From IMG/VR virus record IMGVR_UViG_3300024268_000012: 64,000 bases of DNA, one strand, 5' to 3'. Under the pieces are notes generated by a model. It had not been told where the DNA came from, searched no databases, and worked only from the letters and a program-made list of their open reading frames with translations. The position numbers and the translations under genes were made by a program. Below, in pieces: positions 17,034-18,634 of this stretch (within the stretch, counting starts at the first letter, position 1; each line of letters begins with the position of its first letter). This DNA is from a virus (Duplodnaviria > Heunggongvirae > Uroviricota > Caudoviricetes).

Positions 17034-18380
17034 ATGCGAAAAATTATTGCTCTTGGCATTGGCGCTATATTAATGTTTGGCGCGGGCCTAATTCCCACAT
17101 CCATTGATCCAGCCACCATGCAAATGCTTGGCATTTTCTTTGGTGCGATTTGGTTATGGATTACTCATTCAATTGAAGCAGGTAGTATTATGGCCCTGGC
17201 AGCTCTATGCACTCTGCCTGGCGTCACGACTGCTTCCGTATTCTCCAGTGCATTCGGCAATACTACCATTTGGTTCTTGATTTTCAGCATGGCATTAACT
17301 TATGCTTTATCGTCATCTGGTGTGTTGCGACGAATAGCTTTGTATTTCATTGATAATCCAATAGCAAAGAAGAATAGTTATTGGTTTATGGGATTGTATT
17401 TCTTAGCTATTCTTGTCCTTGGTAGTTTCATGGCTCCTACTGTAACCTTCGTCTTGTTCTTTGGTTTGGTTAAAGAGATTTATGATCTACTTAAGGTCGA
17501 ACCAGGCAATAAGTTAGCTCGTAATATGATGATTGGTACTGGTTTCTTTGCTTCTATTTCATGTGCACTGACTCCTATTGCTCACACTTTCCCGCTGATG
17601 GCACTTGGTTATTATGAAGCATCTACTGGCATGGTTATTCCTTATACTCAATATATGGCGTACAGCGTGCCGGTTTGTCTTTTGATTTCTGTAGTTGCAT
17701 ATATCTTACTAACTCTTGGTGTTAAAAAGGATTTCGATTTTTCAAATGTTTCCTTCGTCAAGAGTAAGTGGACGGGAAAAGAAATCTTTGCATCTATTGT
17801 ATTCCTTGCTGTTGTGGCTTGCTGGCTTGTCGTAGGTATCTGGCCTACCGCTTTTGCTACTTTGAATGCTCTTGGAACAGTATGGCCTGCATTGATTGGT
17901 GTTGTTGTACTTGCAGCAACAGGTATTCTGAATGTTAAGGAAGCGTTCTCTAAAGGTGTTGCTTGGCCGGCGATCATCTTGTGTGGTGCGACTCTTGCGA
18001 TTGGTAAATATCTCACTGCCGATGAATATGGTATTATTACATATGTAAGTCAGTTGTTTGCAAACATCAATCCTTCGCATATTCTGTTTATTGTAGCAGC
18101 ATTTGCGGTGGTACTGACAAATCTTATGTCTAATATTGTGACTACAACGGTATCTTATAACCTATTCGTACCTATGATTCTTGCCACAAGTATGGTATCT
18201 CCTGAACTAGCAACCATTCTAATTGGTGTTGGTGCTTCTTTAGCTTATGCCTTACCTTCTTCCATTGCGCATATTGCATTGGCAGGTTCTTCCGGTTGGG
18301 CAAGTGCCAAAGATATGGTTAAATATGGTGCGATTATGGTTGTTGTAAGTGTATTGATTATGGGGGTATTTATCCTATGA
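17034..18380 (+). CDS. Anion/carboxylate permease-like polytopic transporter (DASS/ArsB-superfamily-like)
   Basis: 448 aa with about 12 hydrophobic segments. RBS AAGGAGG. Confidence 0.55.
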   Translation: MRKIIALGIGAILMFGAGLIPTSIDPATMQMLGIFFGAIWLWITHSIEAGSIMALAALCTLPGVTTASVFSSAFGNTTIWFLIFSMALTYALSSSGVLRRIALYFIDNPIAKKNSYWFMGLYFLAILVLGSFMAPTVTFVLFFGLVKEIYDLLKVEPGNKLARNMMIGTGFFASISCALTPIAHTFPLMALGYYEASTGMVIPYTQYMAYSVPVCLLISVVAYILLTLGVKKDFDFSNVSFVKSKWTGKEIFASIVFLAVVACWLVVGIWPTAFATLNALGTVWPALIGVVVLAATGILNVKEAFSKGVAWPAIILCGATLAIGKYLTADEYGIITYVSQLFANINPSHILFIVAAFAVVLTNLMSNIVTTTVSYNLFVPMILATSMVSPELATILIGVGASLAYALPSSIAHIALAGSSGWASAKDMVKYGAIMVVVSVLIMGVFIL

Positions 18381-18634
18381 TGAACATTATCGAGCAGAAA
18401 CGTGCGGATATCGACCGCATTGATACTGAGTTGGTGTATCTTTTGAATAAGCGATTCCAGGCATGCGTTGCTATTGGCGAAGCCAAGAAGCAAGGTGCTA
18501 CTGCGGTTCTTGATCCCAATCGAGAACAGAATATTCTGAATAGACTGAAGAGCTATGAAGAGTTTGAGGGTATGGTAGATACTCTCTGGCCTCAGATCAT
18601 GGCATACTCTCGCGGGCTTCAGTCCAAACTGTAA
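18377..18634 (+). CDS. Chorismate mutase (AroQ class) domain protein
   Basis: 85 aa: RADIDRIDTELVYLLNKRFQACVAIGEAKK...DPNREQNILNRL matches the AroQ helix-bundle consensus. Coupled to the transporter gene through an ATGA overlap. Confidence 0.65.
   Translation: MMNIIEQKRADIDRIDTELVYLLNKRFQACVAIGEAKKQGATAVLDPNREQNILNRLKSYEEFEGMVDTLWPQIMAYSRGLQSKL

Follow-up and report, generated by a model that had tools for sequence, protein, structure and literature searches.

A conserved transporter-chorismate mutase cassette of tailed phages and its possible role in prephenate supply

Why a tailed phage should carry a membrane transporter and a chorismate mutase side by side, next to its tRNA genes, is the question raised by a 64-kb stretch of the Caudoviricetes record IMGVR_UViG_3300024268_000012 (the whole stretch is here called the window; coordinates are window positions, and contigs or loci labelled L001 and so on are relatives fetched for comparison). 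The gene of a 448 aa transporter is followed there by that of an 85 aa AroQ-type mutase, and the comparisons below show that the two form a conserved two-gene phage cassette which is inherited and selected as a unit in many large, uncultured phages of gut and rumen. In the best explanation of the pair, to which a probability of roughly 40% is given, we infer that the carrier imports chorismate, that the mutase would trap it as prephenate, and that host enzymes would use the prephenate so formed.

The mutase gene lies directly 3' of the transporter gene in all 12 distinct phage lineages recovered (the window, L001, L004, L007, L009, L010, L054, L058, L060, L061, L063 and L066), although the transporters of these lineages are only 46-97% identical and their flanking genes differ. 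Transporter homologues are abundant in metagenomes, and a separate metagenome scan places a mutase ~20-450 nt downstream of the transporter in 36 of 48 loci. A stop/start overlap is present in 10 of the 11 other phage loci examined; the junction takes the form ATGA in the window, L004, L007, L010, L057 and L058, TAATG in L001, L054 and L061, and a 13-nt overlap in L009, and L060 is the only locus with a small open reading frame (ORF) between transporter and mutase. Both genes are under strong purifying selection: against the close relative L109 (synonymous divergence, dS, ~0.45), the transporter has a ratio of nonsynonymous to synonymous change (dN/dS) of 0.035 and the mutase one of 0.054. Since none of the related phage loci found is without the pair and both genes are so constrained, it is more than a chance association; the synteny check in related phages, which the earlier note on this DNA had suggested, thereby strongly supports a functional module.

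These observations bear directly on the plainest alternative, in which the carrier would scavenge generic C4-C6 di- or tricarboxylates for energy or anaplerosis, the mutase would be an unrelated moron that modestly boosts Phe/Tyr synthesis, and their adjacency would be a frozen accident in a tRNA-array hot spot. Such a reading would draw on the sequence and fold matches to dicarboxylate, citrate and sulfate carriers, on the heterogeneous bacterial contexts described below, and on the tendency of large-phage tRNA arrays to gather accessory genes; it is nevertheless considered very unlikely, as it leaves unexplained why the two genes are paired in widely separated parts of the transporter tree, in two branches, and as the overlap is kept across transporters 46-97% identical in different neighbourhoods with strong purifying selection on both genes.

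The lineages vary in size and setting. L001 (172 kb; transporter 75% identical) has the same ATPase-tRNA synteny as the window, with the order ATPase, tRNA-Met, transporter, mutase retained; L004-6 (~100 kb; 65%) have Glyco_transf_8, PhoH and gyrase as neighbours; L007/8 (167 kb; 57%) and L009 (247 kb; 52%) are also large, and L010 (2.4 kb; 72%) is binned in a metagenome-assembled genome (MAG). Eight IMG/VR contigs of 20-192 kb have transporters of 46-48% identity; L063-65 encode a 464-aa transporter near gp5.9-like and Thg1 genes, and the 154-kb L066 has a radical-SAM/GT2 fusion and YcaO 3' of the pair and 21 tRNAs 5' of it. Eight of the phage loci are IMG/VR viral contigs recovered by an alignment-based scan, which was needed for their recovery: an IMG/VR scan with a single protein gave no match, and one with a narrower mutase alignment (A5) gave only one contig, already known. 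The mutases in these loci were found with purpose-built hidden Markov models (HMMs); a word-indexed search with the mutase gave only 4 relatives. Radical-SAM genes, YcaO, GT8 glycosyltransferases and conserved ~450-470-aa proteins of unknown function stand near the cassette in several phage lineages (L066 11583-15426, where radical-SAM is fused to a GT2 glycosyltransferase; L058 11804-13350; L054 648-3400; L004 1578-4440); together these genes may represent an uncharacterised modification pathway.

The earlier note held that neither gene is typical phage cargo, and the deposited phages bear this out. Megablast of the cassette plus 24 kb of the window against 50,697 deposited phage records returned no match, and there is essentially no protein match either: tblastn of the transporter against the deposited phages gave one weak partial match, to Moraxella phage Mcat17 at 24% identity, while tblastn of the mutase gave six unannotated records, one of them flagged 'UNVERIFIED_ORG', which are not used as evidence.

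Some of these phages appear to read the cassette under an altered genetic code. In-frame TAG codons lie inside both cassette genes of L004, L007 and L009; these three lineages are therefore TAG-recoded, and their cassettes are read accordingly. The + strand genes of the 64-kb window contain no in-frame TAG, and a 91-nt tRNA with a CTA anticodon, which reads the amber codon and is labelled 'Pyl' by ARAGORN, is encoded in the window (Table 1); this suggests TAG recoding in the lineage, perhaps limited to late genes outside the window.

Within the window, the ORF listing places both genes exactly where the earlier note had put them, the mutase peptide quoted there (RIDTELVYLLNKRFQACVAIGEAKK...DPNREQNIL) is present in the ORF translation, and the ATGA overlap of the two genes is confirmed (Table 1). 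This overlap suggests translational coupling of transporter and mutase. A promoter scan found no sigma-70-like promoter on the + strand at 16400-17034, and neither promoter nor terminator was found in the interval from the ATPase gene to the transporter, so the ATPase is likely to be the first gene of the cassette transcript; since a strong intrinsic terminator follows the mutase stop codon by 5 nt, the transcription unit is closed after the mutase. The transcript probably runs ATPase, tRNA-Met, tRNA-Thr, transporter, mutase. The ATPase is ~42% identical to Herelleviridae-like phage ATPases, and an Rfam scan around the cassette in the window revealed no riboswitch or T-box leader that would hint at a ligand. 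The guanine-plus-cytosine (GC) content of the cassette (41%) is close to that of the window (43%), so the cassette is no recent insertion. Past the terminator, a TG-extended -10 promoter-like element (TTGAxx-17-TATAAT) is repeated and stands 5' of each small ORF downstream of the cassette; it also surfaces as recurring peptide strings in spurious reverse-frame ORFs.

Table 1. Positions of the cassette and of other features in the window
Feature	Position	Strand	Basis or remark
AAA-type ATPase (phrog_2376), gene 5' of cassette	15667-16824	+	PHROG match E=4e-104
tRNA-Met (CAT), directly upstream of cassette	16850-16926	+	ARAGORN; Rfam tRNA 61.6 bits
tRNA-Thr (CGT), end 31 nt 5' of transporter start codon	16930-17003	+	ARAGORN; Rfam tRNA 61.8 bits
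Shine-Dalgarno AAGGAGG, 6 nt 5' of transporter ATG	17021-17027	+	sequence
Transporter gene (448 aa)	17034-18380	+	ORF listing
ATGA stop/start overlap, transporter TGA with mutase ATG	18377-18380	+	sequence; junction reads CTATGATGAAC
AroQ chorismate mutase gene (85 aa)	18377-18634	+	ORF listing
Intrinsic terminator: 11-bp stem, 5-nt loop, T-run	18639-18675	+	terminator scan
TG-extended -10 promoter directly after terminator, first of the repeated series	18667-18695	+	promoter scan
Further copies of the promoter-like element	19098-19126, 19460-19488, 19656-19684	+	
FolD	347-1180	+	Pfam
Formate/nitrite-type channel	10673-11266	-	Pfam
tRNA-like genes with unusual anticodon region	14992-15117, 15124-15241, 15536-15650	+	Rfam tRNA 40.9-47.1 bits
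RelE-like toxin ORF (phrog_1213)	15266-15532	+	E=6e-8
CTA-anticodon tRNA, 91 nt	26718-26808	+	ARAGORN
SAM synthetase MetK, at end of tRNA array	~33800-34858	+	
Formate-THF ligase (Fhs), 54% identical to a bacterial Fhs	53020-54681	+	BLAST

The transporter is certain, in its modelled fold, to be of the DASS type, and is predicted to act as an elevator-type secondary carrier for an organic anion. Its sole Pfam match is CitMHS (PF03600; 70.6 bits against a cut-off of 31.9), while homologues have precomputed matches to both PF00939 and PF03600; TIGR00785 'dass' is matched with E=3e-34 and 118.5 bits, under the curated cut-off of 198.6. VcINDY is the best solved relative (E=1e-9 when the transporter sequence is used by itself, 1e-21 with the family profile). 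The AlphaFold2 (AF2) model (pLDDT 85.4, pTM 0.84) is a DASS elevator fold composed of a scaffold and a transport domain with two re-entrant hairpins; Foldseek aligns it at TM-scores (TM) of 0.82-0.85 to outward-facing DmINDY, LaINDY, NaS1, NaDC1/3, AtDiT1 and Pho90, and every one of the 39 top PDB matches is a DASS/SLC13/Pho90 chain (TM up to 0.85). The permease proposed in the earlier note is thus upheld by the CitMHS match above cut-off and by the fold, although its '12-helix' label was loose in view of the scaffold and hairpins of the model.

Compared with the DASS/SLC13 family (TC 2.A.47: VcINDY, LaINDY, Drosophila INDY, NaDC1/3, NaCT, NaS1, plant DiT1/2), the phage carrier has the same fold, a similar size of ~450 aa and a like second hairpin-tip motif, S366-N367-I368 (SNIVTTT, against the SLC13-type SNVATTT). 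It is only 16-19% identical to these proteins, however, and differs in two further respects: the first hairpin-tip motif is A134-P135-T136, with (A/S)PT throughout the transporter family in place of the SNT of VcINDY, and two histidines invariant in the family, H184 and H413, are placed in loops whose VcINDY counterparts make up the Na+ clamshells. In DASS proteins, substrate and Na+ are bound by two Ser-Asn-Thr motifs, one at each hairpin tip.

The mutase is, by its sequence, an AroQ (CM_2) chorismate mutase with a complete catalytic residue set, and is predicted to be active. Its Pfam CM_2 (PF01817) score of 65.0 bits exceeds the cut-off of 27, with residues 9-82 aligned to profile positions 2-79 of 80; domain searches, which the earlier note had named beforehand as the refuting test, therefore support both families, and its AroQ assignment is sustained by profile, catalytic residues and fold alike. 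In a BLASTP alignment with the E. coli chorismate mutase domain (EcCM, translated from E. coli pheA), R9, R26, K37, D46, R49 and E50 align with R11, R28, K39, D48, R51 and E52, and S78 and Q82 of helix 3 are the equivalents of S84 and Q88; R9, R26, K37 and E50 are invariant in 13 of 13 transporter-linked mutases. The AF2 model has three helices (4-38, 49-59 and 66-84; pLDDT 86), and its top Foldseek matches are all AroQ domains, including 1ECM at TM 0.70. As no signal peptide was found in it, the mutase is cytoplasmic.

The closest structures and sequences are monofunctional AroQ mutases and mutase domains (the 1ECM P-protein domain, P. furiosus 1YBZ, and the Bacillus/Geobacillus DAHP synthase domains 5GMU and 5J6F), with which the phage protein shares a length of ~85 aa, the three-helix protomer and all active-site residue equivalents; it differs from them in being phage-encoded, translationally coupled to a membrane carrier and adjoined by no other aromatic-pathway gene, and its helix 3 has a phage-specific WPxIM motif. 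The best NCBIfam matches are nearly all chorismate mutase models; however, the best equivalog, TIGR01805 CM_mono_grmpos, scores 53.9 bits against a cut-off of 71.2 and 21 other models are likewise under cut-off, so that the window mutase appears from its sequence to be a divergent AroQ member outside the curated subfamilies.

This divergence opens the alternative that the small AroQ protein is no chorismate mutase in vivo, and instead acts as an isochorismate or aminodeoxychorismate lyase or mutase, or as a non-catalytic partner of the carrier. PchB-like lyases do have the same fold, the protein falls short of every NCBIfam mutase equivalog cut-off, and the group-B phage copies vary at the positions of EcCM Asp48, Arg51 and Gln88. 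The Glu52 position binds the 4-OH of chorismate and is Val, Phe or Tyr in isochorismate-pyruvate lyases (PchB-like AroQ proteins), in which Asp48 is moreover replaced by Ala and Ser84 by Tyr (PMC12329711); the window mutase has E50, D46 and S78 and so departs from that pattern, PRK07075, the model for isochorismate lyase, gives just 23.8 bits, far under its cut-off of 126, and the Glu52 equivalent, a mark of mutases, is invariant together with those of Arg11, Arg28 and Lys39. A function other than that of a mutase is thus highly improbable.

Taken together, the two proteins would form an uptake and trapping device. The carrier would take up extracellular chorismate, which suits a DASS-type carrier because it is a dicarboxylate, and the cytoplasmic mutase would turn it irreversibly into prephenate; as this step is irreversible, import and conversion would trap the compound. 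An infected anaerobic Firmicute would thereby gain a prephenate supply independent of the host shikimate pathway and its feedback control. Genes for enzymes that consume prephenate are absent from the neighbourhood of the cassette, so the product must be used by enzymes of the host, either for Phe/Tyr synthesis or as the co-substrate of prephenate-dependent U32 hydroxylases such as TrhP, which makes 5-hydroxyuridine at tRNA position 34 (ho5U34). Prephenate is the oxygen donor for U32 enzymes (PMC10990095); TrhP-dependent ho5U34 formation requires it, and in obligate anaerobes, which are without the O2-dependent TrhO, TrhP is the sole route of the two known (PMC6599085). The second use would fit the position of the cassette in tRNA arrays, the U34 tRNAs of the window phage (Ser, Pro, Ala, Val and Leu) and its S-adenosylmethionine (SAM) synthetase.

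Two kinds of known system resemble this arrangement. In some salvage operons, such as abgABT and folT-folC, the gene of a transporter stands with that of the enzyme opening the pathway. There, likewise, an uptake protein is encoded beside an enzyme that traps or converts the imported compound, and mutase-less homologues of the phage carrier adjoin folC or an M20D hydrolase; the carriers differ (AbgT or ECF, against a DASS-like protein here), and the enzyme here is a pericyclic mutase. The second kind is prephenate-dependent nucleic-acid modification, by host TrhP, CmoA and U32 enzymes and by CmoA/CmoX of phage S-B43, which consume prephenate and SAM to carboxymethylate DNA and whose authors flag prephenate availability as an open question (PMC12783734). 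The window phage likewise has a SAM synthetase and many U34 tRNAs; the window and flanks yielded no homologue of CmoA, CmoB, CmoX or the U32 enzymes, however, so that the cassette would supply prephenate rather than use it, and the link to such systems is hypothetical. A bolder form of the proposal is decidedly unlikely: the carrier would be the first identified bacterial or phage chorismate importer, and prephenate would serve as a cofactor (oxygen or carboxyl donor) for U32/CmoA-type modification of phage tRNA U34 or for an unknown phage DNA modification, in anaerobic hosts that may lack or tightly regulate the shikimate pathway.

The position of the cassette at tRNA genes, asserted in the earlier note, is confirmed: ARAGORN reports 33 tRNAs at 16850-33744, all on the + strand, two of which end just upstream of the pair, and Rfam adds three tRNA-like genes at 14992-15650, bringing the array to ~36 genes. 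A tRNA array adjoins the cassette in the window, as it does in 6 of 10 further phage loci that were scanned; among the longer metagenome loci this is true of 6 of 13 with a mutase, against none of 4 mutase-less loci. The three Rfam matches exceed the gathering score of 29, although ARAGORN is silent on them; their acceptor, D and T arms are normal, with 48-60 nt in place of the anticodon loop or arm, and they look like tRNAs with a ~45-55-nt insertion or intron, far too short for a group I intron. A RelE-like toxin ORF lies between these odd tRNA-like genes with no obvious antitoxin call, and the full contig has a MazE-like antitoxin gene beyond the window, ~7.5 kb to the left of FolD. A gene resembling that of transfer-messenger RNA (tmRNA) was called by ARAGORN in the tRNA array of the 247-kb TAG-recoded L009 (10409-10748, +).

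The remainder of the window shows that the cassette is encoded in a bona fide phage genome among phage genes. Pfam searches of 41 window ORFs matched gyrase A/B, ligase, RNase H, FolD, formate-tetrahydrofolate (THF) ligase, a formate/nitrite-type channel, SAM synthetase, DUF2828/DUF7788 and MVP-shoulder/Band_7. An identical FolD protein is encoded by at least 22 contigs 50-200 kb long, two of which measure ~174 kb; the window is therefore part of a common ~174-kb uncultured gut phage. From their annotation, FolD, Fhs, the formate channel and MetK would constitute a one-carbon module that takes formate through methylene-THF to SAM; phage L060 has serine hydroxymethyltransferase (SHMT) two genes upstream of its transporter. 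The ORF at 1180-2871 was considered as formate-THF ligase and rejected, since it has no Pfam match and BLAST places Fhs elsewhere (Table 1). A large MVP-shoulder/Band_7 (vault-like) protein and a DUF2828/DUF7788 protein are common to the window phage, L063 and L009 (genes probably at 38026-40497 and 35934-37448 in the window; L063 16654-19080; L009 6066-7592).

The bacterial relatives of the transporter provide evidence on both sides. A GTDB scan gave 44 bacterial loci with a transporter homologue, and in a neighbour-joining tree the phage transporters form two groups, A and B; transporters without a mutase from Lachnospiraceae, Oscillospiraceae and Anaerovoracaceae MAGs (58-62% identity) nest inside phage group A, those of Christensenellales (~44%) are sister to the phage groups, and a distant clade includes Solobacterium, Peptoniphilaceae, Tissierellia and others. 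In this distant clade the pairing reappears: in L034 and L038 the transporter is directly followed by a CM_2 gene of 90 aa, and in Levyella L044 a CM_2 gene lies upstream and is divergently transcribed. An IclR regulator precedes the pair in L034, the third gene of L038 encodes an FAA-hydrolase-family enzyme, and D-2-hydroxyacid dehydrogenase and CstA are also among the neighbours of the distant-clade pairs. Pairing in such distant Peptoniphilaceae and Tissierellia is therefore either ancient or of several origins, and this speaks for a functional link.

The mutase-less loci are heterogeneous in content. The transporter precedes FchA and FolC at tight spacing in L013, Fhs in L078/L080, and an AbgAB-like M20D amidohydrolase in L012; L011 has GNAT-HAD neighbours and L014 a MurA neighbour, while 15-19 Christensenellales loci share one conserved order, M55 peptidase, transporter, xylose-isomerase-like TIM barrel. 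In L074 (4323-7174) and L075 (3341-6192) a thiamine pyrophosphate (TPP) riboswitch is followed by a ThiT-like S-component, a transporter 60% identical to the phage one, whose start overlaps the ThiT stop, and a glycerophosphodiester-phosphodiesterase-like gene; a DASS-like carrier under a thiamine riboswitch is unexpected. In a riboswitch and T-box scan of 23 bacterial loci this riboswitch, present in one lineage, was the sole leader upstream of a transporter, and a T-box in L044 was rejected as a transporter leader, as it lies 3.6 kb downstream and is unlinked. Recurrence of the FolC/FchA, Fhs, M20D, FAA-hydrolase and IclR neighbours was sought in the other loci, and none recurs. The motifs GSF[MI][AS]PT, TPIAHTFP, SNIVTTT and IAHIAL are identical in mutase-linked and mutase-less transporters of the upper clade; as identical hairpin-tip and loop motifs imply the same substrate, both kinds of transporter most likely carry the same compound. 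A special substrate for the phage transporters was considered and dropped, as the motif regions show no separating residue and only positions 208 and 386 differ weakly.

These contexts bring forward the possibility of parallel roles, in which the carrier would import a folate-type or one-carbon anion (folate, 5-formyl-THF, p-aminobenzoyl-glutamate or N-formimino-glutamate) for the phage folate enzymes, while the mutase would separately use host chorismate, the two being co-expressed for one nucleotide or nucleic-acid-modification programme. Folates bear a glutamate dicarboxylate, the homologues beside FchA-FolC, Fhs and M20D have identical motifs, and the phages themselves encode folate-dependent enzymes (FolD, Fhs, the formate channel and MetK in the window phage, and the SHMT near the transporter of L060). 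This arrangement is regarded as possible, although doubtful: the strict coupled pairing in 12 of 12 phage lineages and the independent Peptoniphilaceae pairing would be left unexplained, the mutase would pull chorismate away from p-aminobenzoate (PABA) and folate synthesis, and the FolC/FchA and Fhs contexts belong to one bacterial lineage each and are not kept in other mutase-less loci. Chorismate itself makes sense as the link between both kinds of neighbour, the mutase on one side and, via PABA, the folate genes on the other.

The folate genes also bear on the purpose that the earlier note had proposed, a diversion of chorismate from the folate, siderophore and Trp branches as host manipulation. 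In the nearest form of this idea, the mutase would convert host chorismate, the carrier would export or exchange prephenate or a breakdown product, and the host would be starved of chorismate-derived products. Secreted chorismate mutases of plant pathogens drain chorismate in this manner, and the reaction of the mutase proceeds in one direction only; anaerobes have many DASS members that work as exchangers, the phage carrier is without the first Na+-site motif, and the TAG-recoded relatives translate both genes fully only where TAG is a sense codon. Folate starvation nevertheless looks counter-productive because the phage encodes FolD, Fhs, a formate channel and SAM synthetase, a folate-dependent one-carbon investment whose folate pool would be depleted. 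Furthermore, the closest bacterial transporter homologues, with the same predicted binding-site motifs, stand beside folate or vitamin genes, including the uptake context of the thiT operon with its TPP riboswitch; free-living bacteria keep the pair with an IclR regulator and catabolic-type neighbours, a better fit to uptake and utilisation; and no defence-related PADLOC model matches either protein (a PADLOC-DB scan of the transporter, the mutase and four neighbouring ORFs gave no match). The drain purpose is only one option; it is considered unlikely and is ranked below a supply function.

Several observations weigh against chorismate import and prephenate supply as well. The closest bacterial homologues, at 58-62% identity and with the same motifs, have no adjoining mutase, and their heterogeneous neighbours would fit a folate-type or general dicarboxylate substrate too. 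As the first hairpin-tip motif is (A/S)PT and not SNT, the coupling ion and the direction of transport are unreadable from sequence. In three mutases of phage group B, the residue equivalent to EcCM Arg51 is Val and that equivalent to Gln88 is Glu. Accessory genes generally gather in the tRNA arrays of large phages, and the tRNA association may be non-functional. Lastly, tblastn with E. coli CmoA, CmoB, TrhP, PheA and TyrA on the window and all locus flanks matched only mutase domains; with no TrhP, CmoA, CmoB, prephenate dehydratase or prephenate dehydrogenase in the window or flanks, the downstream use of prephenate is purely what we infer.

Each of the two proteins belongs to a known superfamily, and the cassette they form is a phage auxiliary metabolic module. 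One earlier listing of chorismate mutase among viral auxiliary metabolic genes was found, in a rumen virome database (PMC10465536); that mutase lies on viral contigs from the same kind of habitat and was read as supporting aromatic amino-acid synthesis, although the mention is at catalogue level, without a partner transporter, cassette, overlap or tRNA-array context. A literature search found no description of the coupled transporter-mutase cassette, its phage breadth or its bacterial counterpart, and no paper on a bacterial chorismate transporter or importer.

If the substrate proves ordinary, the finding shrinks to a conserved, conventional pair of auxiliary metabolic genes. In either case the cassette is a testable 1.6-kb two-gene unit and a marker for large phages of gut and rumen, a broad group that includes TAG-recoded members, and a candidate substrate is offered for an uncharacterised DASS-like family common in gut Clostridia. 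Only of late has prephenate come to be seen as anything beyond a step in amino-acid synthesis: carboxy-SAM receives its carboxyl group from it, and the anaerobic U32 hydroxylases, which make tRNA ho5U34, 5-hydroxycytidine at rRNA position 2501 (ho5C2501) and ubiquinone, take their oxygen from it. If chorismate import and prephenate supply hold true, the cassette would be the supply side for a prephenate-consuming phage system whose authors ask where its prephenate comes from; it would point to chorismate uptake as a new transporter function, and, in the bolder form of the proposal, phages would carry a 'cofactor-supply' module for nucleic-acid modification.

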